Below are positions 1,419 to 24,859 of a DNA stretch of 47,428 nucleotides, one piece after another. Origin of the DNA: a virus (lineage: Duplodnaviria > Heunggongvirae > Uroviricota > Caudoviricetes); the IMG/VR virus record IMGVR_UViG_2574180238_000003; one strand, 5' to 3'. The number at the start of each line of letters is the position of its first letter. Position 1 is the first letter of the stretch. The position numbers and the translations under genes were made by a program. Under the pieces are notes generated by a model. That model did no database searches and was not told the origin of the DNA. It worked only from the letters and a program-made list of their open reading frames with translations.

Positions 1419-3890
1419 TTAAAAATCAGCCTGACTCGGGATCAGTTTTTGCCAGATGGCTGAAACGTATTTTGCCTGGTAACGCGTATCGTGCAGGGCG
1501 TTATGGTGTTCACCTTCGAATGGAATAGTCGTTCTTGCGTCGAAATCCATCACCAGTCCCAGAGCAACCATCGTTCTTACATCGCGATCATTGGTGTAAC
1601 GCCACGGGCAGGGGATCCCCTGCCGTTCATATGAACGGCGTAAAATCACGTTGTCGAAAGTTGCACCGTTACCCCAGACCTGAACAAAAAATTCACCGGA
1701 GTTTTCGTCGATAAATTCCCGGAATTGCAGCAGTGCATCATCCAACGGGATTTCATCGGTCAGAATGGCGGATTGTGCTTCGCGTGACTGTTTCAGCCAC
1801 CACTTAATGGTGTCCCGTTCGATGACCCCGCCTGCGGTTTCCAGATCGATAGTTTTGCTGAATTCTGGCCCCATCTCTCCGGTTGCCGGATCAAAAAACT
1901 TACCGGCTATAGCGTTTATTGGCGCATCAGGATTTTTTCCCATTGTTTCAAGGTCAATCATCAGATGGTGCCACAACCTGCTGGTGGATGTGATTTCACG
2001 ATGACCGTTCACCTTAATTAAGGGATTTGCTGTCTCGCCAGTTTTATTATCGCTGGCGTGATACTGATCGCTGTCAGTGTTCTCCTTGTGCGGATCTTCA
2101 GTGCCTTCCATTTCCTCCGGAGCATTTTCCTGAACTTCAATCAGGCTCTCTCCATCGAATGTTTCCTGGTAGGTTGCGTCGCCCATCACCGCACCACAGT
2201 CAGGACAGTTGCCGCCACCGGTCTGACCGCATGCGGTGCAAACTTTCTCCACTTCCTGTTGCACTGCTGGTTCTGGTTGTTGCTCTTCTGGCCCGTTTTG
2301 TTGCGTATCCGGGCTGTTTTGTTCCGCTTCTGGCTCATTTTGTTTCACGCCGGGCTGATTCTGGCCCTCAGCGTTGCGACTCTGGATCCCTTTCACCCAT
2401 TTCGGATCATTAGGGTCGCTAATCCCTTCAACAAATTCACCACGTGATGCAGCAAGCAATTTATCGGCGTCAGGCTGGCTGATATTGGCTGCCTGCATAA
2501 TTTTGTTTACTTCGTCAGCGGTAACTTTTACCGGCTCTGGTTGTACGGAATCTTCAGCGGTATCTACATTTTGCGGTAAGCCCGTATATGTGCCATTTTT
2601 TCGGGCAAAATATTCCTCTTTTGAGATTTCGGTAGCGCCGGCAGCCAGCGCCTTGTCCAGACCAGAAAGTTTGTTTGCCCTGCCGTATTTTTCCTCGCCC
2701 TTATCGGTAAAGACGAAATAAAATGGTCCTTCACGCTCTACAGATGGTTCAGCTTCCACCAGGATTTCATTTTTTTGAGTATCGGATTCTGCCGTCTCCA
2801 CTGGAGCAGTTTGTGCTGCTGACGGCTGGAGAGTATCAGCAGAGCTCTGGTCTGTTTCTTCATGCTCAAACACGCCCTTTGTTGTCAGGTATTCGCTGAT
2901 ATATTTGTTCAGTGCAACGGGATCTTTGTGAATGTCGATCGGACGTTCACGGACAAGGCCAAAAATAGTCTGACGGTCATAGCCAAGTGCTTCGGGCTGT
3001 TTGCGCATTGATGCTGAGATACGCTTCCAGTCTTCGCGATCCTTGTCGATAACCTCATTTGTCGCCCAGCGATGGATGGTACCGTCAATATTTCCCGCAT
3101 TCACATCACCGGGCCAGAGGGCGCAGGCCAGCTCATTGTCGAGTGTTTTCCATGTCTGTTTGTATTCTCGGCGAACGGCAACAGTGACATCCCCGGTTTT
3201 TTCAGCAGAGTTTTCAGTGTTCTGTTGGTTTACTCTGGAACGGGCGATATCAACGACAGATGTGTATTTCCCGGTTTCCTTGCGTTCACCTTCGCGACGT
3301 TTTTTCCAGATGCGCATCTCTGCCTGAATTTCGGGCCATTTAGCAGCAGGCTTGCATTTATGCTTAACCCACCCGATGGCATGCAGCTTAAGCTCCGGAT
3401 ACATGGCGTTAACTTCTGGCATTTTCATCAACGCTTCAACGATATGGCCGTCGAATGTTGCCATGTCTTCCTGCAACAATTCCTGTGCGCTAATCACCAT
3501 ATCAACAGTGATGTTTTCACATGTGTCGAACTTAACCATGACGGCGTTCTGTACTTCAGGGGCCAGCTTGTCAAAGGTGACGTTCATCGGATCGGATTCA
3601 GTCTCGACCGGGACAAAGGAAGCAGACGCCTCATCCCAGCGGTTTTCCTGCATATATTCGGTATCCCAGGAATCGAGGGTAGGGCGGGGTATGCCGGGTT
3701 TATCCTCACAGACAATAAATTTATAAGCGCAGTCCTGAGCTGCCGGGAATTGCTCCAGAAATTGCCAGTGAAATTTTGCGCGTGCGCGACGCTCATCACC
3801 GGCTTCAATGGCAGTGGCCACCGCAACAGCGCTATCTTCTTTTATGGCCTGTTCATCAGGAATAGCCGCGCAAATAAAGATTTTACTCAT
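1419..3890 (-). CDS. Exodeoxyribonuclease VIII (RecE)-family protein with C-terminal DnaQ-like DEDDh 3'-5' exonuclease domain
   Basis: 823-aa ORF. Central Cys-rich segment (CTACGQTGGGNCPDCGAVMGDATYQETF) and the flanking KLLAASRGEFVEGISDPNDPKWVKGIQ segment resemble the RecE linker region as recalled. C-terminal ~200 aa carry DEDDh motifs read directly: MIDLETMG (DxE), WGNGATFDN, HNALHDTRY (Hx4D). Confidence 0.75.
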   Translation of the reverse strand: MSKIFICAAIPDEQAIKEDSAVAVATAIEAGDERRARAKFHWQFLEQFPAAQDCAYKFIVCEDKPGIPRPTLDSWDTEYMQENRWDEASASFVPVETESDPMNVTFDKLAPEVQNAVMVKFDTCENITVDMVISAQELLQEDMATFDGHIVEALMKMPEVNAMYPELKLHAIGWVKHKCKPAAKWPEIQAEMRIWKKRREGERKETGKYTSVVDIARSRVNQQNTENSAEKTGDVTVAVRREYKQTWKTLDNELACALWPGDVNAGNIDGTIHRWATNEVIDKDREDWKRISASMRKQPEALGYDRQTIFGLVRERPIDIHKDPVALNKYISEYLTTKGVFEHEETDQSSADTLQPSAAQTAPVETAESDTQKNEILVEAEPSVEREGPFYFVFTDKGEEKYGRANKLSGLDKALAAGATEISKEEYFARKNGTYTGLPQNVDTAEDSVQPEPVKVTADEVNKIMQAANISQPDADKLLAASRGEFVEGISDPNDPKWVKGIQSRNAEGQNQPGVKQNEPEAEQNSPDTQQNGPEEQQPEPAVQQEVEKVCTACGQTGGGNCPDCGAVMGDATYQETFDGESLIEVQENAPEEMEGTEDPHKENTDSDQYHASDNKTGETANPLIKVNGHREITSTSRLWHHLMIDLETMGKNPDAPINAIAGKFFDPATGEMGPEFSKTIDLETAGGVIERDTIKWWLKQSREAQSAILTDEIPLDDALLQFREFIDENSGEFFVQVWGNGATFDNVILRRSYERQGIPCPWRYTNDRDVRTMVALGLVMDFDARTTIPFEGEHHNALHDTRYQAKYVSAIWQKLIPSQADF

Positions 3891-10021: not shown

Positions 10022-10390
10022 ATGACTGAATTAACAAAAGAGCAATTAATCAAAGAAGCCAAATTAAAAATAGCGGTTGCGAAATGTTACCCTAATTCAG
10101 AGATGGCCAGGGTAGAGGGCGAGCTATTCAAAATTGCACTGGCATCGCTGGAAGCGGTTCCGGTGGCATGGCTGCATTCAGACAATGGCCTGGGTATTCC
10201 AGCAATAACCAGGAGTAAAAACGTTGCTGATAGTTGGTTATCAAAGGGCTGGTATGTTCAGCCGTTATATGTAGCCCAACCAGTACCGGTGGTGCCGGAT
10301 GCTCGTCCATCTTTAAATAATGGCATTGTCGGATTTGATGAAGGCTGGAATGCCTGCCGGGATGCCATGCTTAATGGAGATAAATCATGA
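10022..10390 (+). CDS. Hypothetical protein
   Basis: 122-aa ORF in the nin-like region; ATGA overlap with the next gene. Confidence 0.5.
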   Translation: MTELTKEQLIKEAKLKIAVAKCYPNSEMARVEGELFKIALASLEAVPVAWLHSDNGLGIPAITRSKNVADSWLSKGWYVQPLYVAQPVPVVPDARPSLNNGIVGFDEGWNACRDAMLNGDKS

Positions 10391-10949: not shown

Positions 10950-11159
10950 AAACGGTTTGCGGGGAAAGAAGAGTTAAGTAGAATTGCTGCGGGTGCTTGA
11001 GGCTGTTTGCCTCGGGCATGCCGCCGTAAGGCAGACAGAGAAAAGCCCCAGTTAACATTACGCGTCTTGCAGGACGCTTAACATTAATCTGAGGCCCAAT
11101 CTATGCTTCACAAACGTAGGTTAGCCTCTTACGTGCCGAAAGGCAAGGAGAAGCAGGCT

Positions 11160-11315
11160 ATGAAGCAGCAAAAGGCGATGTTAATCGCCCTGATCGTCAT
11201 CTGTTTAACCGTCATAGTGACGGCACTGGTAACGAGGAAAGACCTCTGCGAGGTACGAATCCGAACCGGCCAGACGGAGGTTGCTGTCTTCGTAGACTAC
11301 GAATCTGAGAAGTAA
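11160..11315 (+). CDS. hokD: Hok/Gef-family type I toxin (HokD/RelF-like)
   Basis: MKQQKAMLIALIVICLTVIVTALVTRKDLCEVRIRTGQTEVAVF... matches the Hok family signature and recalled RelF/HokD; GC hairpin ggcgagggagaaatccctcgcc (11325-11346) just downstream, typical of hok mRNA 3' ends. Confidence 0.85.
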   Translation: MKQQKAMLIALIVICLTVIVTALVTRKDLCEVRIRTGQTEVAVFVDYESEK

Positions 11316-12819: not shown

Positions 12820-13179
12820 ATGCTCATAGATTTGGTTTTACCTTACCCGCCGACGGTGAACACTTACTGGCGTCGTCGTGGCAGCACATATTTTGTCTCA
12901 AAAGCCGGGGAGCGTTATCGCCGGGCAGTGGCGCTTATTGTTCGCCAGCAGCGGCTGAAATTAAGACTGTCCGGACGGCTGGCAATAAAAATTATTGCAG
13001 AGCCACCGGATAAGCGTCGTCGTGACCTGGACAATATTCTGAAAGCGCCGCTGGATGCGCTGACGCATGCGGGAATGTTAATGGACGATGAGCAGTTTGA
13101 TGAAATCAATATTGTACGTGGTCAGCCAGTATCTGGTGGACGGCTGGGTGTGAAGATTTACAAAATTGAGAGTGAGTGA
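12820..13179 (+). CDS. rusA: RusA Holliday-junction resolvase
   Basis: 119-aa ORF; LPYPPTVNTYWR... N-terminus and the DKRRRDLDN acidic motif match the RusA family; nin-region position upstream of Q. Confidence 0.85.
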   Translation: MLIDLVLPYPPTVNTYWRRRGSTYFVSKAGERYRRAVALIVRQQRLKLRLSGRLAIKIIAEPPDKRRRDLDNILKAPLDALTHAGMLMDDEQFDEINIVRGQPVSGGRLGVKIYKIESE

Positions 13180-13187
13180 GCGTAAAT

Positions 13188-13718
13188 ATGATATATCCGG
13201 AAATTACAGGCAAAAGCGGCGAACATTTACGCCTGAACACGCTGGAAGCAGTCTGGATCCAGGGGAAATTACGGATGTGGGGGCGGTGGTCGTATATCGG
13301 TGGGGGTAAATCCGGAAATATGTTTAACCGGTTACTGGTTTCGAAAAAACTGACGAAAACCGCAGTTAATGAGGTTTTACGCAGAATGAAGAAATCCGGG
13401 CTGGATAAACCGGAACTTGAGGCATTTTTTCGGGATATGACAAGAGGAAAGCAGAAGAGCTGGTTGTCACATTGTACAGACACAGAGGCGTTGATTATTG
13501 ATCGCGTTATCAGTGAGGTGCTTGGGGAATATCCCGGGCTAATCAATGTTCTCCGGCAAAGGTACGAAGGACGGGGAATGAGTAAGAGAAAAATGGCAGA
13601 ATGTTTAAATCGTACTCACCCGGAATGGTGCTTCAGCACATGTGAGAAACGTATTGCAGGTTGGTTAGCCGTGGCTGAACACATGCTTTATGTACCTATG
13701 CACGATTCATTTCGATAA
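13188..13718 (+). CDS. Late-gene antiterminator Q
   Basis: 176-aa ORF directly upstream of the late region (methylase, tRNAs, lysis genes), downstream of rusA; Cys/His-containing C-terminus; assigned mainly by position and size. Confidence 0.65.
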   Translation: MIYPEITGKSGEHLRLNTLEAVWIQGKLRMWGRWSYIGGGKSGNMFNRLLVSKKLTKTAVNEVLRRMKKSGLDKPELEAFFRDMTRGKQKSWLSHCTDTEALIIDRVISEVLGEYPGLINVLRQRYEGRGMSKRKMAECLNRTHPEWCFSTCEKRIAGWLAVAEHMLYVPMHDSFR

Positions 13719-13810
13719 AAAAAGCTTGCTTTTTTACGCAGAAACAGCTTGAATTCGTGTAAGCTTCGCAAAGCTGTATCGCGAGGCGAAACGCAAGTTT
13801 TTTCGCACAA

Positions 13811-13838
13811 GGAAGCCACCGGAAAGTGGTTTTTTTGT
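13811..13838 (+). terminator. Candidate intrinsic terminator downstream of Q (tR'-like)
   Basis: gccaccggaaagtgg hairpin followed by ttttttt; short stem, so weak. Confidence 0.35.
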
Positions 13839-13959
13839 GTCCGTAATATACAGCAGCGCAATAAATTCGCTGGTGGTTATTAATACCGTTCTTTCAGCTT
13901 GCTGGCTTTTTTGACAAGAGTTATTGGTGTGTCACGTTAACCGGAAAAGGGAAAAAGAC

Positions 13960-14157
13960 ATGCTGAAACAGCAGGATATGACAGAAACCGCCAGAGCAGT
14001 GTTTAATGAATTAAGCGTCACCGAACCGGCGACAGTCGGGGAGATTGCGCAGAATACTTACCTTTCACGCGAACGCTGCCAGTTAATACTGACCCAGCTT
14101 GTTATGGCGGGTCTGGCAGACTATCAGTTCGGTTGTTACAGACGCCTTCGGTCCTGA
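13960..14157 (+). CDS. Hypothetical small protein
   Basis: 66-aa ORF from an internal Met (MLKQQDMTETARAVF...), preceded by an AAGGGA purine-rich stretch. Confidence 0.4.
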   Translation: MLKQQDMTETARAVFNELSVTEPATVGEIAQNTYLSRERCQLILTQLVMAGLADYQFGCYRRLRS

Positions 14158-14307
14158 AGGCTTTTTTATTTGTGGTAAATGGGCGGCTGGTGGGTGTTAG
14201 GGGCACTCACCAGCCATCTGCTCATGCGTCCGGATCACAAGCAAACCTCAGGCCCACTGCTTTGCGCAAAAGCAGAATGAGCCTATCAGAGACAGGCTTA
14301 ATGATCC

Positions 14308-15366
14308 ATGTTTAATACTGTAAAAATATCCAGTTGTGAGTTGATCAACGCTGACTGCCTGGAATTTATCCGGTCGTTACCCGAAAATTCTGTTGACCTG
14401 ATAGTCACGGCCCCGCCGTACTTTAAAGTGAAGCCTGAGGGCTGGGATAACCAGTGGAAGGGCGACGATGATTACCTGAAATGGCTGGACCAGTGTCTGG
14501 CGCAGTTCTGGCGGGTGCTGAAACCTGCCGGAAGTCTTTACCTGTTCTGTGGCCATCGCCTGGCATCTGACATTGAAATCATGATGCGAGAACGCTTCAG
14601 TGTGCTGAACCATATTATCTGGGCGAAGCCGTCCGGACGCTGGAACGGGTGCAACAAGGAAAGCCTGAGGGCGTATTTCCCCGCCACAGAGCGCATTCTG
14701 TTCGCGGAACATTATCAGGGGCCGTATCGTCCGAAAGATGCCGGGTATGAGGCGAAGGGCAGGGCACTGAAACAGCATGTGATGGCACCGCTGATTGCTT
14801 ACTTTCGTGATGCGCGTGCTGCCCTGGGGATAACGGCAAAACAGATTGCTGATGCCACAGGAAAGAAAAACATGGTGTCGCACTGGTTCAGTGCCAGTCA
14901 GTGGCAGTTACCGAACGAAAGCGATTATCTGAAATTACAGGTGCTGTTTGCCCGGGTGGCAGAAGAGAAGCATCAGCGGGGTGAACTGGAAAAGCCCCAC
15001 CACCAGCTGCTGGAGACGTATACTTCACTGAACCGGCAGTATGCGGAACTGCAGAGTGAATATAAGCATCTGCGGCGGTATTTTGGCGTGACGGCGCAGG
15101 TGCCGTACACGGATGTGTGGACGCATAAACCGGTGCAGTACTATCCCGGGAAACATCCGTGCGAAAAACCGGCAGAAATGCTGCAGCAGATAATCAGCGC
15201 GAGCAGTCGTCCGGGTGACCTGGTTGCAGATTTTTTCATGGGGTCGGGTTCGACAGTCAAAGCCGCGATGGCGCTGGGGCGGCGTGCAACTGGCGTTGAG
15301 CTGGGGACTGAACGTTTTGAGCAGACGGTCAGAGAAGTTCAGGATTTAGTCAGTCAGAACGGATGA
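14308..15366 (+). CDS. Orphan DNA methyltransferase (beta-class amino-MTase)
   Basis: 352-aa ORF; catalytic TAPPY motif near the N-terminus and AdoMet-binding FMGSGST near the C-terminus (circularly permuted order typical of beta-class MTases); no adjacent restriction enzyme. Confidence 0.85.
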   Translation: MFNTVKISSCELINADCLEFIRSLPENSVDLIVTAPPYFKVKPEGWDNQWKGDDDYLKWLDQCLAQFWRVLKPAGSLYLFCGHRLASDIEIMMRERFSVLNHIIWAKPSGRWNGCNKESLRAYFPATERILFAEHYQGPYRPKDAGYEAKGRALKQHVMAPLIAYFRDARAALGITAKQIADATGKKNMVSHWFSASQWQLPNESDYLKLQVLFARVAEEKHQRGELEKPHHQLLETYTSLNRQYAELQSEYKHLRRYFGVTAQVPYTDVWTHKPVQYYPGKHPCEKPAEMLQQIISASSRPGDLVADFFMGSGSTVKAAMALGRRATGVELGTERFEQTVREVQDLVSQNG

Positions 15367-15406
15367 TATTGCAGGATTAGTTACGTACCGTTATTATCCT
15401 GCGCCC

Positions 15407-15482
15407 GGCCCTTTAGCTCAGTGGTGAGAGCGAGCGACTCATAATCGCCAGGTCGCTGGTTCAAATCCAGCAAGGGCCACCA
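15407..15482 (+). tRNA. tRNA with CAU anticodon (Ile2/lysidine-type, ileZ-like; Met not excluded)
   Basis: 76-nt cloverleaf: acceptor GGCCCTT/AAGGGCC, D-arm GCTC..GAGC, anticodon loop CTCATAA, T-loop GGTTCAAATCC, 3' ACCA encoded; close to recalled E. coli ileX. Confidence 0.85.
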
Positions 15483-15491
15483 TATCACATA

Positions 15492-15568
15492 CCGCCATTA
15501 GCTCATCGGGATAGAGCGCCAGCCTTCGAAGCTGGCTGCGCGGGGTTCGAGTCCTCGATGGCGGTCCA
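15492..15568 (+). tRNA. tRNA-Arg (anticodon UCG)
   Basis: 77-nt cloverleaf: acceptor CCGCCAT/ATGGCGG, anticodon stem CCAGC/GCTGG with loop CTTCGAA, T-arm CGGGG-TTCGAGT-CCTCG, 3' TCCA. Confidence 0.8.
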
Positions 15569-15846
15569 TTATCTGCATTATGCGTTGTTGGTTCTGATGA
15601 GTGAATCATTGTCTTTTGAGCAACAGGCTATCATATAAGATAGCCTCAGACTTCCTTGTTTATTCTCGCCGGATGCTTCGTAGATATTTGCAGGCATCTG
15701 TATGCAGGGGTATTATTGCGGCATATATCATCCGGAAAAATAAAAACTACATGCTGATCCGGAGATGATAGTTACAAGTCCTCCCGGATCCCGCATATTT
15801 ACTATATTTTATAGATAATTGTTCTTGTTAATATGGAGATGGATAA

Positions 15847-16275
15847 ATGTATTGCCGTGCTGTACCGGTTCTTGTTTTGATATTAGCCAGTCTGACAACT
15901 GGCTGCACAAAAGATGTATCGACAAATAATCATGATGCTTCTCTGTATCACTCAGATAAATTAATAAAGTCGCAAAATTTGAGCTCATCGGAACGTACCC
16001 CTGATGCCAGTGAAGAAATCCGGCAGTATGCCATTCAGGTCAGGAAAGCCATAGAAGAACAGTTAAAGGATGCGAGTAAGTATTCAGGAAAAGAGTGTTC
16101 ACTGAGAATGTATATGGCCCCGAATGGTCTTCTGCTACAGGTTAAAAGAGAAAGCGGTGATCCCGATTTATGTCGTGAAGCGATGAATGCAGTAAAGAAT
16201 GCTGATATACCATCACCACCGTCTTCAGGAGTATATAAAGCATTTAGAAATGGCGTGCTGGATTTTAAACTCTGA
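15847..16275 (+). CDS. Lipoprotein with TolA C-terminal domain (domain III)-like region
   Basis: Signal peptide plus lipobox LTTGC; C-terminal ~80 aa (IQVRKAIEEQLKDASKYSGKECSLRMYMAPNGLLLQVKRESGDPDLCREAMNAVKNADIPSPPSSGVYKAFRNGVLDFKL) align to recalled E. coli TolA domain III including the conserved Cys pair; AT-rich upstream flank. Confidence 0.7.
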   Translation: MYCRAVPVLVLILASLTTGCTKDVSTNNHDASLYHSDKLIKSQNLSSSERTPDASEEIRQYAIQVRKAIEEQLKDASKYSGKECSLRMYMAPNGLLLQVKRESGDPDLCREAMNAVKNADIPSPPSSGVYKAFRNGVLDFKL

Positions 16276-16334
16276 CAGGGGGAGAAGATTTTCTCCTGTC
16301 CTGATGATTTTGGGGCGCTGGAAAGATATTGTGC

Positions 16335-16590
16335 TGTGAAGTGTTAAATCCCTCACAATTCAGTAAGTTGACAGTTGCCTGTCAGACTGAGCATTTGTTA
16401 AAAAAATTTCGCATGGTGAATCCCCCTGTGCGGAGGGGCGACTGGTGAACGGTATGATCTCTTTGATGATCGTAAGCGAGAATACGCGGGTTTGGTGTCA
16501 CCGGGCTGAACTCACCGGGAGGCACCCGGCACCATGCTCATGGTGATACAGAAATGCGGCTTCAGCCCCTCTCCGGAGGGGCTTTCTTAT
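16335..16590 (+). repeat. Structured repeat unit 1 of 4 (candidate sRNA)
   Basis: Conserved blocks ttaaatccctcacaattcag, gcatggtgaatccccctgtgcggaggggc, caccgggaggcacccggcaccatgc, and terminator hairpin gcccctctccggaggggc with T-run. Confidence 0.6.
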
Positions 16591-16746
16591 GGACAAAAAA
16601 AGCCCGCGCTGGGAGACGCGGGCGGCAAGGAATAAACAATAAAACGTGAAGTAATACTTCAACTGGCGAATAATACCCGACAGTAATCACTCTGCGCAAT
16701 AGCGTGGCCTTTTTCGAATTGCGGGCTGTAGTCTCCCTTCTGCCGG

Positions 16747-16900
16747 GTGTCCTGGTTGCAGATTTCTTCATGGGGTAGGGTTCGGCAGTTAAAGCAGCGA
16801 TGGCGCTGGGGCGTCGTGCAACTGGCGTTGAGCTGGATACCGGGCGTTTTGAACAGACTGCGCAGGAAATCAGGGATGTATTTAGCGGGAGCGGTTTGCA
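16747..16900 (+). pseudogene. 3' fragment of a DNA methyltransferase gene (paralogous to 15216-15366), in-frame stop
   Basis: Nucleotide similarity to the 3' end of the intact methylase gene; translates as VLVADFFMG*GSAVKAAMALGRRATGVELDTGRFEQ... Confidence 0.7.
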
Positions 16901-16970: not shown

Positions 16971-17696
16971 ATGGATGTTGCCTGCTCTGTGGTCCTGATT
17001 CGCTATCCGATAGATATTTTTCTTGAAAAAGAAAAAGTTTCACTCGATGCCGGAAGTGTTATGCTTGTTGCCAGAAATATAAGAGGGCTTTTCTGTGCTT
17101 ATGCCGACAGAGTGAAAATGGCAGATATAAGTAACAGCGTCGTCAATCAGTATCTGGAAAGGGAGTGTGAACTGACGGAGTATACACCGACAAAAATGCC
17201 TCTTTATTTGATGTCTGATATTTACAATACGGAACTGGCGGAGGCTTTAATAACCCAGCATAGTGAATCCAGTGATACTTTGAAGGATTTCTCTGTTATA
17301 ACCGCATTTTCATGTATCTCCTTATTTGCAACAGACAGACGTCTGCCATTATTTTTGTCCGGTGCTGTAAATAATATCAGCTGTAAAGTAAGGGCTATAA
17401 TTCAGACCGACATATCGGCAGGCTGGATGCTTGGTGTGATTGCATTACAATTGCATATGAGCGAAAGCTTGTTGAAGCGAAAACTTAAGGATGAAGGTTA
17501 TAGCTTTAGTCGGTTGTTGCTGGAGGAGCGAATGCGTGTTGCTGTTAATCTTGTATGTTTCCAGCGAGAGTGTGGACAAGCGATAGCGGAAAAATGTGGT
17601 TACTCAAGTAAGTCCTACTTCATTTCTGTATTTCACCAGTATTATGGTGCACCACCTGAGAGCTATGCATATTTGCAGAAAGCAGACGTTATCTGA
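16971..17696 (+). CDS. AraC-family transcriptional regulator
   Basis: 241-aa ORF; C-terminal AraC-type dual HTH (GWMLGVIALQLHMSESLLKRKLKDEGYSFSRLLLEERMRVAVNLV...KCGYSSKSYFISVFHQYYGAPPESY); AT-rich gene in the accessory block. Confidence 0.8.
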   Translation: MDVACSVVLIRYPIDIFLEKEKVSLDAGSVMLVARNIRGLFCAYADRVKMADISNSVVNQYLERECELTEYTPTKMPLYLMSDIYNTELAEALITQHSESSDTLKDFSVITAFSCISLFATDRRLPLFLSGAVNNISCKVRAIIQTDISAGWMLGVIALQLHMSESLLKRKLKDEGYSFSRLLLEERMRVAVNLVCFQRECGQAIAEKCGYSSKSYFISVFHQYYGAPPESYAYLQKADVI

Positions 17697-17785: not shown

Positions 17786-18064
17786 GTGAATATTGATGAG
17801 AAAATCAGATGTAGCCAACTGTTACAGCGTATTGAAGCCGTCAATGTGGAACGAACAAAGGTCTTCAGTCGTCTGACAGTTTTATTTTGTACCCCTGATC
17901 GACGTTCAGGTCAGGAGATGGTTCTTCTGGATGTAGATGCACTTCGGAACGTCTGTGAGGAGTTCACCGCGGCTAATTCGGAGTTACTGAGTCTTGTTCA
18001 GGAGTACAACAGAATTGCAGGTAGTAACGGTTTTGATGAAATCAAAATTATATCCCGTGGATAA
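17786..18064 (+). CDS. Hypothetical protein
   Basis: 92-aa ORF (GTG start, or ATG 17796) downstream of the AraC gene. Confidence 0.35.
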   Translation: MNIDEKIRCSQLLQRIEAVNVERTKVFSRLTVLFCTPDRRSGQEMVLLDVDALRNVCEEFTAANSELLSLVQEYNRIAGSNGFDEIKIISRG

Positions 18065-18304: not shown

Positions 18305-18548
18305 TCATGGAAATGTTAAATGACTCACAATTCGGTTGATGGGCTATTGTCTGATCGATGGAAGTCTTGTAAAAACGAGCCAGCATAGTGAATCCCCCTG
18401 TGCGGAGGGGCGTCTGACATGGTCTCCATAGCGATGGTCACAATACGCAGATTCAGTAGTCAGGCTGAATCTACCGGGAGGCACCCGGCACTATGCTGCT
18501 TATGGTGTATACATAGCGATCGGCCCCTCTCCGGAGGGGCTTTTTTTG
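18305..18548 (+). repeat. Structured repeat unit 2 of 4
   Basis: Same block order as unit 1; long-range helix gcatagtg (18383-18390) / cactatgc (18489-18496) carries a compensatory base-pair change relative to unit 1; terminator gcccctctccggaggggc plus T7. Confidence 0.6.
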
Positions 18549-18564
18549 TGCGGGAAAAGGCTGT

Positions 18565-18806
18565 GTTGTTAAGTGTTAAATTCCTCACAGTTCAGATGGT
18601 TGATGCTTGCCTGTCTGAGGGGGCGTTGTTAAAAAAGTTCTGCATGGTGAATCCCCCTGAGCGGAGGGGCATATCAGCGCAGGTGTTTCTACTCTATCCT
18701 TTCTGTGCGGGTTCAGGTGCTGATACTGAACTCATCGGGAGGCACCCGGCATCATGCATATGGTTAACAGACACGTAGCGAAGCCCCTCTCCGGAGGGGC
18801 TTTTTT
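18565..18806 (+). repeat. Structured repeat unit 3 of 4
   Basis: Same blocks; helix gcatggtg / catcatgc (G-U wobble); terminator gcccctctccggaggggc plus T6. Confidence 0.6.
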
Positions 18807-18824
18807 ATGCAGGGAAAAGGCTGT

Positions 18825-19062
18825 GTTGTGAAATGTTAAATTCCTCACAATTCATGAGGTTGATGATTGTCTGATTGATGAGGAGTTTGTTAAAAAAAAC
18901 GGGCATGGTGAATCCCCCTGTGCGGAGGGGTGATATCGTATCATTTCCTGTGTGGCCGACTGATATCACGGACATTTGTTCACCGGGAGGCACCCGGCAC
19001 CATGCAGTATACAGAGATTAGGCATACATCCAGGCTCCTCATCGCAGGAGCCTTTTTACATG
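18825..19062 (+). repeat. Structured repeat unit 4 of 4
   Basis: Same blocks; helix gcatggtg / caccatgc; different terminator sequence (ggctcctcatcgcaggagcc plus T5) in the same position. Confidence 0.6.
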
Positions 19063-19291
19063 TAAAAAAAAAAACGCTCCTGGGAAGAGCGGTTGGCAAG
19101 GAAGCAAGGAATAAATAACAAAACGTGAAGTAATTTATTCAGCACCCTAATAATACCTTAGAGTAATCACATTGCGCAACTGTAAGGGCGTATTTCTTTT
19201 TTGCGGGCTGTTTTTCTGTGTGACTTTTGTGTTTCCGGAGGTCAGCCCGTGCCTTCTCTGACTCAGAACATTATCCCGGCCGGGAGGATTC

Positions 19292-21256
19292 ATGGCATTT
19301 AAACACTACGATGTGGTCAGGGCGGCATCGCCGTCAGACCTTGCTGAACGACTGACACAAAAACTGAAGGAGGGCTGGCAGCCATTTGGCAGTCCGGTGG
19401 CCATCACGCCTTATACCCTGATGCAGGCCATTGCGGCGGAAGGTGATGTCACCACACCAGTGGCGGTGACCGGTAATGAGGGTAAGGCGGTGGCTGTCAG
19501 TGCCACCAGCGACCCGGAGTATTACTTTGTTGTGGTTCTGGCAGGGCAGTCAAATGGCATGTCGTATGGTGAAGGTCTTCCGCTGCCGGAGACATATGAC
19601 CGTCCGGACCCGCGCATTAAGCAGCTGGCGCGCCGCAGTACGGTGACACCGGGCGGTGCAGCATGCAAATATAACGACATCATTCCGGCGGACCATTGTC
19701 TGCATGATGTGCAGGACATGAGCCGCCTTAACCATCCGAAAGCGGACCTGTCAAAGGGGCAGTACGGTACCGTGGGGCAGGGGCTGCATATCGCCAAAAA
19801 ACTGCTGCCGTTTATACCGGCGAATGCGGGTATTCTGCTGGTTCCGTGCTGTCGTGGGGGTTCAGCGTTCACCACCGGAGCTGATGGCACATACAGTGAC
19901 GCTGGCGGTGCCTCGGAGAATTCAGCGCGCTGGGGTGTGGACAAGCCGCTGTATAAGGACCTTATCGGTCGAACAAAAGCAGCACTGAAGAAGAACCCGA
20001 AAAATGTGCTGTTTGCCGTGGTGTGGATGCAGGGGGAATTTGATTTTGACGGCACGCCCGGAAATCACGCAGCACAGTTTGGTGCGCTGGTTGATAAATT
20101 CCGTGCAGACCTGGCGGATATGGCAGGCCAGTGCGTCAGTGGCTCTGCTGGCGGTGTTCCCTGGATATGCGGGGACACGACGTATTTCTGGAAGCAGAAG
20201 AACGAATCCACGTACCAGACGGTGTACGGCAGCTATAAAAACAAAACGGAAAAGAATATCCATTTCGTACCGTTCATGACGGATGAGAACGGGGTGAATG
20301 TGCCGACGAACAAACCGGAAGAAGACCCGGACATTCCGGGTATCGGGTATTACGGTTCGAAATGGCGTGACAGCTCAGCCCCCTGGACGTCACAGGACAG
20401 GGCGAGCCATTTCAGCACCTGGGCACGCCGGGGGATTATTTCCGACCGTCTGGCAACGGCGATTCTGGTGCACGCCGGGAGAACCGCTGAATTCATTACC
20501 GGAAAACAGCCTGATATGGTGAAGCCCACCGTACCTTCCGGTGAAGGTCCGGAGAGAGAGGCGGAAGCCCCGGTCAGTAACCGAACCCTGATGAGTCTGC
20601 TGGCATCCGGCGAAGACCTGGCATCACAGGGCTGGCGCTATTATCACAAACCGGCGGGCGGGGACAGTGTTAACAAAAACATTGCTGAAGCGGTGGTCAG
20701 TGATGCGGGGGCTACGGGAGGTAAGGCTCTGCAACTGAACAAACCGGAAAACCACATCTGGTTTCTGGAGCATGATGCAGCCGGACAGGGTGCGGAGTTA
20801 CTGAAGAAGGGCGGACGTGTGAGCGTACGGTTTAAGTTGCCGGGTTCACTGGTGCCGAATCAGTTTGCCCTGGGCATTTACTGGCAGTTGTCGTCCCTGC
20901 CGGAGGGGGTGACGCTGTCAGGAGAAGGTAACGATATGCTGATGTCTTTCTTCCTGCAGACGGATACGACGAACCTGAACGCGATGCATCACAGGAAGCC
21001 GAATGCGAAGCTGGATACATTCGGGGTCTTTGATAACGGATGGCACACGCTGGCTTTTGAGTTTGCCGGAAACAACAGCATTCAGGTGACACCAGTACTG
21101 GATGAGAAACGGGGAGCGGCGTTCACACTGGTGAAGTCACCGGCATCGGGGGCGGCGGACAAACTGCAACTGACCGATATATCAAAATCGGCGACGTATA
21201 CGCTGCTGATTGACAGCATTGCGGTGGAAGTGAACAGCACAGACACTGCGGCATGA
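19292..21256 (+). CDS. NanS-p-type sialate O-acetylesterase (SGNH/SASA hydrolase)
   Basis: 654-aa ORF; GQSN catalytic motif (VVVLAGQSNGMSYGEG); location between Q/tRNAs and the lysis cassette as in Stx-type lambdoid phages. Confidence 0.75.
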   Translation: MAFKHYDVVRAASPSDLAERLTQKLKEGWQPFGSPVAITPYTLMQAIAAEGDVTTPVAVTGNEGKAVAVSATSDPEYYFVVVLAGQSNGMSYGEGLPLPETYDRPDPRIKQLARRSTVTPGGAACKYNDIIPADHCLHDVQDMSRLNHPKADLSKGQYGTVGQGLHIAKKLLPFIPANAGILLVPCCRGGSAFTTGADGTYSDAGGASENSARWGVDKPLYKDLIGRTKAALKKNPKNVLFAVVWMQGEFDFDGTPGNHAAQFGALVDKFRADLADMAGQCVSGSAGGVPWICGDTTYFWKQKNESTYQTVYGSYKNKTEKNIHFVPFMTDENGVNVPTNKPEEDPDIPGIGYYGSKWRDSSAPWTSQDRASHFSTWARRGIISDRLATAILVHAGRTAEFITGKQPDMVKPTVPSGEGPEREAEAPVSNRTLMSLLASGEDLASQGWRYYHKPAGGDSVNKNIAEAVVSDAGATGGKALQLNKPENHIWFLEHDAAGQGAELLKKGGRVSVRFKLPGSLVPNQFALGIYWQLSSLPEGVTLSGEGNDMLMSFFLQTDTTNLNAMHHRKPNAKLDTFGVFDNGWHTLAFEFAGNNSIQVTPVLDEKRGAAFTLVKSPASGAADKLQLTDISKSATYTLLIDSIAVEVNSTDTAA

Positions 21257-23229: not shown

Positions 23230-23850
23230 ATGAAAGATCAAGATGTTAGGTTCGCGGTGCATCATAAGCTTTTGAAAGAATCGCATTTAGATCCAGACTG
23301 CCTTGTGGTCGATGAATTTTCCATATCCCTTGGCGCCAGTAGAGCAGACATTGCTGTAATAAATGGTGTTATACACGGGTACGAGCTCAAAAGTGAATAT
23401 GACTCTTTGGAGCGTTTGCCTCTTCAAATCAAGCATTATTCTTCTGTAATGGACAAGGTTACTCTTGTCGTAGCTGAGAAACATCTTGAGGGAGCATTAA
23501 AGTTAATCCCAGGTTGGTGGGGCGTTAAAACGGTTTCTGTTGGGTCAAAAGGCGCCATTCTTATAAAGCACATGCGTGGAGAAAAGCTTAATCGAAACCA
23601 TGACACATTGATGCTCGCTCAATTGCTTTGGAAAGATGAATGTATCGACGTACTTGAACGATGGGGCTATTCCAAAGGAATCAAAAGCAAGCCCCGATTT
23701 GAGTTATGGAATATTATTGCGGAAAATATTCCAATAGCGAATCTCAGGCTTGAAGTCAGAACAGCCTTAAAGAAACGCGTAGGCTGGAAAGTTAAGGCTT
23801 GGCAGGCTGAGTCTGCGCCAACCAATAAAGCTGTCTCACGACTAACGTAA
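23230..23850 (+). CDS. Hypothetical protein with PD-(D/E)xK-like nuclease motif
   Basis: 206-aa ORF with a strong Shine-Dalgarno (GGAGGGAGTAAGGAGAAG before the ATG); putative active-site elements RADIAVINGVIHGYELKSE (D...ExK); AT-rich; convergent with and overlapping the next gene. Confidence 0.6.
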   Translation: MKDQDVRFAVHHKLLKESHLDPDCLVVDEFSISLGASRADIAVINGVIHGYELKSEYDSLERLPLQIKHYSSVMDKVTLVVAEKHLEGALKLIPGWWGVKTVSVGSKGAILIKHMRGEKLNRNHDTLMLAQLLWKDECIDVLERWGYSKGIKSKPRFELWNIIAENIPIANLRLEVRTALKKRVGWKVKAWQAESAPTNKAVSRLT

Positions 23851-24859
23851 TATGGTGCGTATGTGCAACTTTACGCCATTCTTTAGAGCCGCCAGATTTG
23901 TTAGCGCCTAATGATCTTTGGTAAATGTAATCATCCCCCCAACTAAATTTGGAGCCAAAGACTTGATACTCTGGCGAACTAACAAGGGTAGTACATAAGT
24001 TTTTAGTTTGGCCCCATCCATTTCCTTTAACTGCGGTACCTTTTACAAAGATCCATGAGGTATCGTTCGAATATCTCACTGAGACATACTGAGACATGAA
24101 GCGTGGGTCTACGCTCGTAATGGTAGAGCTAGCGGTGGGATAATCACTAAAACTTGGCGTTCTTCCATTGCTAAAATTCTGTACTACGTACATCCAAAGA
24201 TCGTATTCATGGCGCGGAATATGATGAACTTGATGTTGCGGTATCCCTGCCTGTGATGCCGGGTATGCGGTTGAAGATAAAATCAAGTTTCTCCACGGAG
24301 CTTGGCCTGATAATGTGTTGACCATGCTTAATGCTTGTTGTTTTAAACTATCAGTTGCGTTTTGAATATCTCCAAAATCAATGATTACATCAATTAAACT
24401 AGGATGAATATTTAAGTGGTTAACCAGACTTGTGAATTGGTGCCATGTCTGGGGGGTGATAGATATAGCGAGCCCATTGATTAAGTTGCGTTGAACAGCA
24501 TGTATATAGTTTGTTGAATATGTGGGAGAAACAACAGGGATAATTTCCTTACCATTTACTCTAGCATCTTGGATACACATATCTAGAGGATGATGGCGGC
24601 TCGAACCATGTTTATCTAAATATTTAACATCCAGCAAAACAGGACGATTGGCTTTCCAGGATGCCGCAAGGTTAATACCGAAGTCAGATAAGTAAGAACT
24701 CAAACTCTTCTTGTAGCATTCGTTTTCATAATCCCAGTCTATGTCTGGAATGGTAATGATCGGAGTAAAACCAGAGAGCGTAGTTTGATCTAAAAGCATC
24801 AGAGATTCATATTCAGCAGGCTTCCATTTCAGCTGTGGATAATATTGATGTTGACTCAT
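23792..24859 (-). CDS. Hypothetical protein (355 aa), partner of the PD-(D/E)xK-like gene
   Basis: Minus-strand ORF with an AAGGAG Shine-Dalgarno upstream; its 3' end overlaps the plus-strand gene by 59 bp; no recognisable motifs; AT-rich promoter region at 24860-25060. Confidence 0.6.
   Translation of the reverse strand: MSQHQYYPQLKWKPAEYESLMLLDQTTLSGFTPIITIPDIDWDYENECYKKSLSSYLSDFGINLAASWKANRPVLLDVKYLDKHGSSRHHPLDMCIQDARVNGKEIIPVVSPTYSTNYIHAVQRNLINGLAISITPQTWHQFTSLVNHLNIHPSLIDVIIDFGDIQNATDSLKQQALSMVNTLSGQAPWRNLILSSTAYPASQAGIPQHQVHHIPRHEYDLWMYVVQNFSNGRTPSFSDYPTASSTITSVDPRFMSQYVSVRYSNDTSWIFVKGTAVKGNGWGQTKNLCTTLVSSPEYQVFGSKFSWGDDYIYQRSLGANKSGGSKEWRKVAHTHHITLVVRQLYWLAQTQPAKP

Follow-up and report, generated by a model that had tools for sequence, protein, structure and literature searches.

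Related Systems

Two orphan adenine DNA/RNA methylases, M.EcoGI and M.EcoGII, have been characterized from prophages of E. coli O104:H4 C227-11 (PMC5778455). Neither recognizes a sequence motif; both are unexpressed in the lysogen, which shows no methylation signal, and both are toxic under constitutive expression (PMC5778455). They have the architecture of the beta class, with motif IV at the N-terminus, a central TRD and a C-terminal FxGxG motif, and protection against restriction during lytic growth is the accepted inference for the family. Other phage-borne enzymes, namely Hia5, Nme1821 and Hin1523 of Mu-like prophages and the Mom protein of phage Mu, likewise modify adenines broadly and thereby shield phage DNA against many restriction enzymes. 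However, the former three belong to the alpha class with its reversed motif order and show no close sequence kinship to the methylase described here, whereas Mom makes a different modification.

The tRNA genes ileZ, argN and, in part of the phages, argO beside the stx slot are a well-known trait of Stx phages. A literature search found no paper naming the three together, and the names rest on GenBank annotations. In Stx-converting prophages, stxA/stxB lie between these tRNAs and the esterase/lysis genes, i.e., in the interval from Q to lysis, and are silent in lysogens. In Stx2a_1447 (AP012536), the methylase is followed by ileZ, argN, a full argO and stx2AB. A 933W-like Stx2a prophage (O104:H4 FDAARGOS_348) has the same three-tRNA cluster immediately 5′ of stx2a, in the interval from Q to the SASA esterase; of the methylase, a 114-nt 3′ relic is all that is left there. 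The Stx2e phage phiP27 shows the order orf65, methylase, ileZ; it has kept ileZ and argO, has lost argN and carries stx2e.

Overview of the Locus

The locus compared here with these systems occupies positions 14308-15568 of the window, meaning the whole stretch of 47,428 nucleotides that was analyzed. It is quite probably a standard late-region accessory module of Stx-type lambdoid phages residing in a stx-negative E. coli prophage, with an intact methylase whose D35A change is most likely an artefact. The cassette is one already known, a non-specific adenine methylase of the M.EcoGII family followed by the phage tRNAs ileZ and argN, and its sole oddity is a broken catalytic motif, most likely a sequencing error. 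The features of the locus and its surroundings are:

13176..13718, + strand: Q-like late antiterminator gene of the DUF1133 type (Pfam PF06576, E=1.4e-110; weaker match to PF06530 Phage_antitermQ)
13719..13867, + strand: Q-type-specific region, presumed late promoter/qut segment, not common to Stx phages with other Q genes
13868..15589, + strand: mobile late-region module comprising orf65, methylase, ileZ, argN and the first 8 nt of argO, delimited by nucleotide matches to Stx2 phages
13960..14157, + strand: conserved 65-aa ORF (orf65), always 5′ of the methylase (PHROG 331, E=2.5e-37, no assigned function)
14144..14171, + strand: intrinsic terminator between orf65 and methylase (terminator scan)
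14308..15366, + strand: orphan beta-class N6-adenine DNA methyltransferase of the M.EcoGI/M.EcoGII family (ATG start, 352 aa)
14411..14411, + strand: single base C, A in all relatives (GAC -> GCC, Asp35 -> Ala)
15407..15482, + strand: tRNA-Ile2, anticodon CAU, phage ileZ, reading AUA (ARAGORN; Rfam 72.5 bits)
15492..15568, + strand: tRNA-Arg, anticodon UCG, phage argN (ARAGORN; Rfam 55.1 bits)
15582..15589, + strand: first 8 nt of argO, GCGTTGTT, in register 13 nt past argN (alignment with Stx2a_1447)
15590..16352, + strand: cargo segment in the stx2AB slot, 39% GC (break in the similarity to Stx2a_1447, which runs up to 15589 and again from 16353)
15847-16275, + strand: lipoprotein-like ORF with a TolA C-terminal domain, within the cargo (PF06519 TolA, E=5.7e-23)
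16382..16594, + strand: STnc100 sRNA copy, right border of the cargo slot (Rfam RF02076, 172 bits)
16743..16894, + strand: 3′ fragment of a second methylase allele, pseudogene (direct repeat with 15211-15362, 80% identity)

The Q-like gene also matches PHROG 753 ("anti-termination protein Q-like") with E=4.9e-75. For the near-identical copy of this gene in E. coli HY220605, the start annotated at NCBI corresponds to window position 13188.

A methyltransferase followed by a tRNA(CAU)/tRNA-Arg(UCG) pair had been described here in the initial annotation, and the ORF, the PF01555 match and the concordant ARAGORN and Rfam calls agree with this. ARAGORN returned exactly the coordinates proposed for the two tRNAs, 15407-15482 (CAT) and 15492-15568 (TCG). 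Their placement where Stx phages have ileZ-argN-argO upstream of stx was likewise correct, as the same module precedes stx2 in those phages. The position "immediately after Q" needs qualification: the cassette does lie downstream of Q, but the methylase start comes approximately 590 nt after the Q stop (13718). In between are the Q-specific region with its terminator-like hairpin (13816-13836), the 65-aa ORF and the intrinsic terminator.

Over positions 13868-15589, the module is 96-98% identical at the nucleotide level to Stx2a and Stx2d phages and to 1720a-02, and 87% identical to phiP27, a value that also holds for the protein. Matches to the module were obtained in 292 phage records, mostly of Stx2 converting phages, all of which end at window position 15589 (query position 2414). 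In 5,426 complete E. coli genomes, a 61-mer of the methylase occurs in about 1,500, the argN junction in 813 and the truncated-argO junction of the window in 122. Annotations of HY220605, Stx2a_1447, 1720a-02, phiP27 and Ec-U3 all place the conserved 65-aa ORF 5′ of the methylase.

The Methylase

The methylase matches Pfam PF01555 (N6_N4_Mtase) over profile positions 1-219 of 221 with E=1.6e-42 and 146 bits, the cut-off of the model being 26.7 bits. Its motifs follow the order IV, TRD, I, with xPPY at residues 35-38 (14410-14421) and FMGSG at residues 310-314 (~15235-15249), and an insertion of about 100 aa separates the two halves of the PF01555 profile. Relatives in the PDB include the RsrI, CcrM, MboIIA and DpnA methylases. 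Like M.EcoGI and M.EcoGII, the enzyme is prophage-borne, orphan and of beta-class architecture, and it is about 94% identical to M.EcoGII over the full length. The identical residues number 327 of 349, a figure that may underestimate the true identity, as the reference was the machine-read supplement of PMC11551740 with visible reading errors. M.EcoGII has 349 aa and ends in ...DLIV, whereas the window methylase has 352 aa and ends in ...DLVSQNG. Identity to the enzymes of Stx2a_1447 and 1720a-02 reaches 97-98% (98% for 1720a-02), and both of these read TDPPY. The 1720a-02 enzyme was named "very similar" in the paper describing M.EcoGII (Murray et al. 2018, PMC5778455). Judged by these comparisons, the window methylase is an ortholog of M.EcoGII.

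A PADLOC scan of the neighbours of the methylase revealed no restriction partner; they are the Q-like antiterminator, the 65-aa ORF, the tRNAs and the TolA-like ORF. This is in accordance with the initial annotation, in which the methyltransferase was said to have no adjacent restriction gene. By analogy to its relatives, the enzyme would methylate adenines of replicating phage DNA without sequence preference, and the packaged genomes would thereby be protected in the next host from many restriction systems that are sensitive to m6A.

The Deviating Base at 14411

The catalytic motif IV of beta-class methylases is (D/N/S)-P-P-(Y/F/W) (PMC7544214). As sequenced, the window methylase reads A-P-P-Y, which lies outside this pattern, whereas M.EcoGII has DPPY at this place; the APPY reading is probably an artefact, as the deviating base carries an Illumina error signature. 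If real, D35A would be expected to kill the enzyme, since the change from DPPY to APPY abolishes activity in the three phage non-specific adenine methylases Hia5, Nme1821 and Hin1523. The reading of D35A as a real inactivating mutation is weakened by the context of the single-nucleotide differences.

In the 5,426 complete E. coli genomes, the 61-mer of the window around 14411 matches at 1,909 places, none of them exactly. Its version repaired to A, on the other hand, matches at >=99% in 1,146 records. On the reverse strand, the base is a T->G change that follows GGCGGG. Of the 22 SNPs that separate the window from HY220605, six are T->G changes right after a G-run, while 0.18 would be expected (P=4e-8). 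In a second draft contig (L011) that bears the GCC codon, other differences show the same T->G signature. It matches a published Illumina error at GGC motifs, where the wrong call repeats the base before it, T->G being the preferred change. Base 14411 is also the sole difference between the methylase gene of the window and the HY220605 copy. A literature search for the sequencing platform of the source assembly found nothing. From the error signature together with the absence from complete genomes, it follows that base 14411 is probably an artefact and the true motif DPPY. The C is thus most likely a sequence-specific Illumina base-call error in the source draft assembly, and the real enzyme is probably intact.

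The alternative that D35A is real, so that a dead M.EcoGII-type protein is kept as an intact ORF here and in two prophages with diverged alleles, carries a small but real chance. The window does read GCC at codon 35, the exact APPY protein is on record in GCA_000627945.1, and two IMG/VR contigs whose alleles are 93.6-94.6% identical have the same GCC codon in full-length ORFs, which could mean a recurrent change. That such a change would be natural and selectively kept in all three alleles, which are 94-95% identical, yielding catalytically dead M.EcoGII-type proteins, appears rather unlikely. Two ways of accounting for a dead copy may be considered, both within the same small chance as a real D35A: inactivation may have relieved the toxicity of leaky expression, in line with the toxicity of constitutively expressed M.EcoGII, or the protein may have a non-catalytic role, e.g., as a dead dimer partner in polylysogens. 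Beta-class methylases are thought to work as dimers with a division of labour, and up to 5 copies of the gene occur per genome. However, not one of the approximately 1,900 gene copies from complete genomes reads APPY, the T->G type of change seen after GGCGGG recurs in 5-6 further differences of this draft assembly and in others of the L011 contig, and nothing else in the gene points to decay.

The Two tRNAs and Codon Usage

Both tRNA genes score well above the gathering score of the Rfam tRNA model (29). None of the SNPs between the window and HY220605 falls inside either gene, and HY220605 carries NCBI annotations of tRNA-Ile and tRNA-Arg at these places. The nearest K-12 relative of ileZ is ileX (~88% identical, same anticodon loop). 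The pairs 4:69 and 5:68 of ileZ are C4:G69 and C5:G68, as in ileX. In metT they are U4:A69 and A5:U68, and the initiator metZ is different throughout. E. coli TilS uses the pairs 4:69 and 5:68 as identity pairs (PMC11947777). The CAU tRNA is thus, by its identity pairs, a tRNA-Ile2 rather than a tRNA-Met. Relative to ileX, ileZ has A:C instead of G:U at position 27:43 and a compensated 6:67 change in the acceptor stem; it is 100% identical to the copy of Stx2a_1447. The argN gene differs from that of Stx2a_1447 at three bases (3/77) with the cloverleaf preserved, and its minimum-energy fold is the cloverleaf. After lysidine modification by the host TilS, ileZ would add capacity for decoding AUA, and argN would supply a UCG anticodon that is absent from E. 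coli, for CGA and, by wobble, probably also for CGG.

Codon usage was compared with a K-12 sample of 14,363 codons by Fisher tests. AUA was enriched 2.9x in the early genes, 3.9x in the cargo and 1.7x in the late genes (p=0.013). CGA reached 1.2x in the late genes, which is not significant (p=0.43), and CGG 3x. CGA and CGG taken together were at 1.9-2.6x and AGA plus AGG at 3.8-9x. Overall, AUA, CGA and CGG occur in prophage genes at about 1.2-4 times the frequency of the K-12 sample. Of the two rare codons for which the late genes were to be checked according to the initial annotation, AUA is thus enriched, but CGA is not. Codon use supports the rationale for the tRNAs only partly. Since CGA is not enriched in the late structural genes and AUA only modestly so, demand for the tRNAs is weak when they are presumably made. 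Moreover, argO was lost despite a 4-9x enrichment of AGA/AGG, and therefore at least one tRNA is dispensable.

The argO Remnant and the Cargo Slot

Compared to Stx2a_1447, the window shows the tRNAs at the same position, with the same flanking methylase and the same spacers (9 nt between ileZ and argN; 13 nt after argN). In contrast to the full argO and subsequent stx2AB of that phage, argO is cut after 8 nt in the window and the TolA-like lipoprotein gene takes the place of stx2AB. The window hence carries a two-tRNA derivative of the three-tRNA cluster of Stx phages. PhiP27 also has two tRNAs, but kept argO where the window kept argN, and the full methylase gene of the window corresponds to a mere relic in the 933W-like prophage.

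Searches past argN with ARAGORN and permissive Rfam settings called no tRNA. The segment 15590-15660 was considered as a decayed argO and rejected, as no tRNA was called in it and its fold is not a cloverleaf. A weak similarity to the anticodon arm of argO past 15589 was not significant either, with 106 of 2,000 shuffles scoring as well. Of argO, the first 8 nt alone are secure. A check of the tRNA calls of the kind suggested in the initial annotation consequently confirms both tRNAs, with the addition that argO is truncated after 8 nt and not simply absent.

In place of the toxin genes, which lie between the tRNAs and the esterase/lysis genes in Stx-converting prophages, the slot of the window holds the TolA-like ORF. 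A tblastn search with Stx2A and Stx2B yielded nothing better than E=0.5, in agreement with the earlier statement that no toxin gene follows. At the right border, the region of the STnc100 copy is 89.6% identical to that downstream of stx2B, and the Stx2a_1447 equivalent follows stx2B. The fragment at 16743..16894, which in HY220605 bears the annotation of a partial DNA methyltransferase pseudogene, is a second-allele methylase fragment and a scar of module exchange. Recombination in this lineage would have cut the module 8 nt into argO and placed the TolA-like lipoprotein gene in the position of stx2AB.

Expression of the Module

The Q-type-specific region ends in a tR′-like hairpin (13816-13829) followed by a run of seven T (13830-13836), and a hairpin with T-run is present at the same position in all four phages aligned. 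From its position and this common layout, the segment 13719..13867 presumably functions as late promoter and qut site. The intrinsic terminator further downstream has a 7-bp stem GCCTTCG/TGAAGGC (14144-14161), followed by the T-run TTTTTTATTT. A scan for sigma-70-like promoters on the + strand of 13100-15687 found no candidate, neither for the methylase and the tRNAs nor for PR′, the late promoter, and PR′ is tentatively placed only by position and the common architecture of hairpin and T-run.

With two terminators upstream and no recognisable promoter of its own, the module is most likely silent in the lysogen. It would be read only after induction, by Q-modified RNA polymerase passing the terminators. 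The tRNAs begin 40 nt past the methylase stop with no promoter-like site between, and they are therefore presumably made from the same transcript, from which the host RNases P and E would cut ileZ and argN.

Possible Roles of the Module

The initial annotation had offered an anti-restriction or an epigenetic role for the methylase. The former is in line with what is accepted for the M.EcoGI/M.EcoGII family, whereas regulation of host or prophage genes in the lysogen is highly improbable. Orphan methylases such as Dam and CcrM can act as regulators (introduction of PMC5778455), and the window methylase is an orphan, too. Nevertheless, lysogens show no methylation signal of M.EcoGI or M.EcoGII, these enzymes lack a motif and their expression is deleterious, and the gene of the window lies behind two terminators with no promoter-like site. 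Because the family is silent in lysogens and methylates without a motif, comparing the lysogen with the cured strain by SMRT would give a negative result even for a functional enzyme, and such a methylome comparison is the wrong test for it.

It could also be argued that the module has no function under selection and is a passive hitch-hiker from recombination with Stx-type phages. The truncation of argO and the reduction of a second methylase copy to a fragment fit this, and 933W-like Stx2a prophages retain the methylase relic only, so that parts of the module are dispensable. Still, the methylase ORF is intact, as are both tRNAs, and all three hardly vary over hundreds of genomes; the identity of ileZ to the Stx2a_1447 copy, its compensated 6:67 change and the structure-preserving differences in argN speak against decay, and the module has become distributed over phages that differ in their Q genes and cargo. 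We regard passive carriage as improbable. For the tRNAs in particular, the weak late-gene demand for CGA and the modest one for AUA would fit a role mainly as spares against host defences or toxins that target tRNAs, such as anticodon nucleases or tRNA-Arg cleavage of the colicin D type, rather than codon matching. For other phages, tRNAs that escape anticodon nucleases have been described. However, the close resemblance of ileZ to the host ileX, including the same anticodon loop, offers no obvious escape from a nuclease cutting ileX, early and cargo genes show a clear excess of AUA and AGR/CGR codons, and no nuclease against these tRNAs is known in the examined context. Retention of the tRNAs mainly as spares is accordingly improbable.

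Implications

As a discovery the locus carries little weight, given that the M.EcoGII family has been characterized and is sold as a reagent and that the tRNAs are an established feature of Stx phages. The apparent active-site mutation is a cautionary case of the Illumina T->G error after G-runs falling into a functional motif. Should D35A nevertheless be true, the proteins concerned may represent detoxified forms, or else serve in a beta-class dimer as adenine "readers" or non-catalytic partners, analogous to METTL14 or MTA9. The presence of the methylase-tRNA cassette together with the stx slot in stx-negative prophages, where the slot takes up other cargo, bears on the origin of Stx phages by recombination.

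Position and Borders of the Block Downstream of Q

The window contains a complete lambdoid prophage with int, xis, exo, repressor, replication, Q, lysis, terminase, head and tail genes, and its first 25 kb are 99.9% identical to the prophage of the E. coli genome HY220605. The initial annotation had described an orphan methyltransferase and a tRNA pair immediately after Q and had proposed a tRNA search as a check. All three genes were recovered at the coordinates claimed, the open reading frame matching PF01555 and both tRNAs being called by ARAGORN as well as by Rfam:

14308-15366, + strand, DNA methylase ORF of 352 aa (PF01555, E=1.6e-42)
15407-15482, + strand, tRNA(CAU), ileZ (ARAGORN; Rfam 72.5 bits)
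15492-15568, + strand, tRNA-Arg(UCG), argN (ARAGORN; Rfam 55.1 bits)

The neighbouring genes include no nuclease-like partner, in agreement with the description as an orphan, and stx sequence is absent, as had been stated. The methylase does lie downstream of Q, though not strictly "immediately": about 590 nt separate the two, comprising a segment specific to the Q type, in which a terminator-like hairpin lies, as well as a conserved 65-aa ORF and an evident intrinsic terminator.

The stretch 13868-15589 has counterparts with 96-98% identity in many converting phages of the Stx2a, Stx2c and Stx2d types and in phage 1720a-02, and one with 87% identity in phiP27. In these records the block is annotated as hypothetical protein, DNA methylase, ileZ and argN, followed by argO and stx2AB; the suggested parallel to the tRNA placement in Stx phages is borne out by ileZ-argN of this same block. 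In different phages it is attached to different Q genes; similarity starts past each Q's own downstream segment of ~125-150 nt, which ends in a hairpin and T-run in all four aligned phages. At the right border, identity with the Stx phage Stx2a_1447 stops at 15589, 8 nt into argO, and restarts at 16353, at an STnc100 copy that comes after stx2B in the Stx phage; 15590-16352 therefore replaces the rest of argO plus stx2AB. Only the first 8 nt of argO are securely recognisable, and no tRNA was called past 15568, permissive settings included.

A junction of argN to cargo like the one in the window was found in 122 of 5,426 complete E. coli genomes, and argN is followed by argO in ~690 others of this set. 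The arrangement is already known and common among sequenced E. coli. In every respect tested the locus belongs to known kinds (M.EcoGII-family orphan methylase, ileZ, argN); with its argO cut short and no stx gene, it is neither a three-tRNA cluster nor part of an Stx phage. Two remnants, namely the 3′ piece of another methylase allele directly ahead of the AraC-like gene and a 114-nt relic that is all of the methylase left before ileZ in the 933W-like Stx2a prophage of O104:H4 (positions 3224-3337 of comparison record L133), are scars of repeated module exchange at this site.

Cargo Slot and Other Accessory Genes

The following features were annotated in the slot and elsewhere in the prophage:

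10991-11165, + strand, sok antisense RNA with hokD-type toxin gene (116 bits; early region)
15847-16275, + strand, lipoprotein-like ORF with TolA C-terminal domain, within 15590-16352 (PHROG 5772; AT-rich, 39% GC)
16382-16594, 18354-18549, 18614-18812 and 18874-19063, + strand, four copies of STnc100 sRNA (119-172 bits)
16743-16894, + strand, 152-nt 3′ fragment of the second methylase allele (80% identity to 15211-15362)
16971-17696, + strand, AraC-family regulator (best match YdeO/GadX, below family cut-offs; PHROG 1450)
17786-18064, + strand, 92-aa ORF after the AraC-family regulator (PHROG 2873)
23230-23850, + strand, and 23792-24859, - strand, gene pair annotated in HY220605 as "sce7726 family" and "beta family protein"

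The TolA-domain gene fills the stx2AB slot exactly, with truncated argO to its left and an STnc100 copy to its right. Speculatively, a TolA domain III placed in the periplasm could decoy colicins or filamentous phages, or it could loosen the outer membrane. The AraC-family regulator, which presumably resembles the prophage Psr/PatE acid-resistance regulators of EHEC, and the 92-aa ORF are AT-rich and very AUA-rich. The last three STnc100 copies stand in tandem at ~260-nt spacing just upstream of a SASA esterase (nanS-p-like) gene at 19292-21256; STnc100 has been tied to PasD sRNAs and esterase genes in a 2026 preprint. The genes at 23230-24859, convergent and slightly overlapping, lie between the lysis cassette and the terminase genes, match the PADLOC models "cll" (2e-31) and PD-Lambda-2_C/"beta" (4e-32), and are a candidate anti-phage defence pair carried as accessory cargo. 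In a related prophage a second Hok/Gef gene is annotated between J and the tail-fibre genes (window ~44.6-44.75 kb), and the HY220605 annotation lists a truncated "valyl-tRNA synthetase" pseudogene at a position matching ~10022-10384.

The Two tRNAs and Codon Usage

ARAGORN labels the CAU tRNA as Met from its anticodon only; this label was rejected, as the best alignment is with K-12 ileX. Both have C4:G69 and C5:G68; in metT, the elongator, these pairs are U4:A69 and A5:U68, and the initiator tRNA differs throughout. The pairs 4:69 and 5:68 are used by E. coli TilS for lysidine identity (PMC11947777). Relative to ileX, a change at position 6 is offset by a compensating change at 67. The gene is annotated as tRNA-Ile in HY220605 (NCBI) and as ileZ in GenBank records.

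The sequence of argN folds into a cloverleaf with anticodon UCG. E. coli decodes CGA with an inosine-containing ICG tRNA and CGG with a minor CCG tRNA; since it is not known to have a UCG isoacceptor, argN should decode CGA directly and CGG by wobble.

Codon frequencies relative to 40 K-12 genes (14,363 codons)
AUA: early 2.9x; cargo 3.9x; late structural 1.7x (p=0.013)
CGA: early 3.2x; cargo 2.0x (p=0.09); late structural 1.2x (p=0.43)
CGG: early 2.3x; cargo 1.9x; late structural 3.0x (p=4e-13)
AGA+AGG: early 9.2x; cargo 8.6x; late structural 3.8x

The proposal that the tRNAs serve rare codons held for AUA and for CGA and CGG combined; for CGA in the late genes taken alone it did not hold. 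The heaviest users of AUA are the AT-rich cargo genes beside the tRNAs (AraC-like 33, TolA-like 28 per 1000 codons). In the structural genes (21846-47428) CGG reaches 15.6 per 1000 codons, three times the K-12 sample, with no enrichment of CGA. Should argN contribute to late translation, the relevant codon may be CGG, not CGA. That argO was lost in spite of heavy AGA/AGG use shows single tRNAs of the set to be dispensable.

Catalytic Site of the Methylase

The methylase has a beta-class layout: residues 35-38 form motif IV, an insertion occupies the centre, and FMGSG lies close to the C-terminus. Its identity is 98% to the enzyme of phage 1720a-02, named a very similar homolog in the M.EcoGII paper (PMC5778455), and 94% to M.EcoGII itself, as compared with a machine-read copy of the sequence printed in the supplement of PMC11551740. 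Motif IV reads T-A-P-P-Y, and T-D-P-P-Y in the Stx-phage, 1720a-02, phiP27 and M.EcoGII proteins, a difference of one base (C for A at 14411; D35A). Because the D-to-A exchange in DPPY killed activity when made in three other non-specific adenine methylases of phages (PMC3299994), the sequence taken at face value would encode a dead enzyme.

The exact protein is on record in a single public contig, JJLY01000027.1 of draft assembly GCA_000627945.1, and over 7 kb this contig is 100% identical to the window. The 61-mer around codon 35 matches 1,909 places in the 5,426 complete E. coli genomes, none of them exactly; with the A restored, it matches 1,146 records at ≥99%. On the reverse strand the change reads GGCGGG[T->G], and T->G directly after a G run accounts for six of the 22 SNPs between window and HY220605 in the first 25 kb (4605, 14411, 19858, 20381, 21293 and 25101), where 0.18 would be expected by chance (P=4e-8). 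A seventh SNP (20662) is A->G after GGCGGGCGG. The context of 14411 fits the published Illumina sequence-specific error, with GGC in the upstream 10 bases, a miscall copying the preceding base and T->G favoured (PMC3141275). The G-run SNPs look like systematic GGC-motif errors of this kind in the draft assembly, and other coding changes in the window may likewise be artefacts.

The same GCC (APPY) codon in place of GAC occurs in two further IMG/VR contigs, IMGVR_UViG_2579778702_000004 and IMGVR_UViG_2619619126_000010, both with 349-aa alleles of M.EcoGII length that are 93.6-94.6% identical to the window. That D35A is real is rather unlikely, and a real, recurrent catalytic-dead M.EcoGII allele slightly less likely again. 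Between the second contig and Ec-U3, the complete genome closest to it, there are more T->G differences after G runs. Together with the missing 61-mer, the excess of G-run SNPs and the match to the Illumina pattern, this makes D35A, as far as sequence comparison goes, quite probably an assembly artefact.

Expression and Function of the Module

No sigma-70-like site was found on the + strand from Q to beyond the tRNAs, the methylase is preceded by two terminators, and just 40 nt lie between its stop codon and ileZ. On these grounds the module would most likely ride on the Q-antiterminated late transcript, as stx does in Stx phages, and the tRNAs would be cut out of it. The tR'-like hairpin after Q differs at base 13825, reading CCACCGGAAAGTGG in the window and CCACCGGAAGGTGG in HY220605; as the window's base removes the fifth stem pair, this first terminator before the module is weakened.

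That the tRNAs are spares against tRNA-cleaving defences, or that the module is a passive hitch-hiker, we consider improbable to the same degree. A role of the methylase as epigenetic regulator in the lysogen, one of two suggested initially, is very improbable: M.EcoGII and M.EcoGI are prophage-borne orphans that are silent in the lysogen and harmful under constitutive expression (PMC5778455). Because the family is silent there, the proposed SMRT comparison of lysogen and cured strain would be negative even with a working enzyme.

M.EcoGII and M.EcoGI methylate adenine in any sequence context, and the authors suggest that both are switched on when the prophage launches a new infection (PMC5778455). 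Given these properties, the window methylase would most likely serve late, Q-dependent hypermethylation of progeny DNA and thereby broad protection against restriction.
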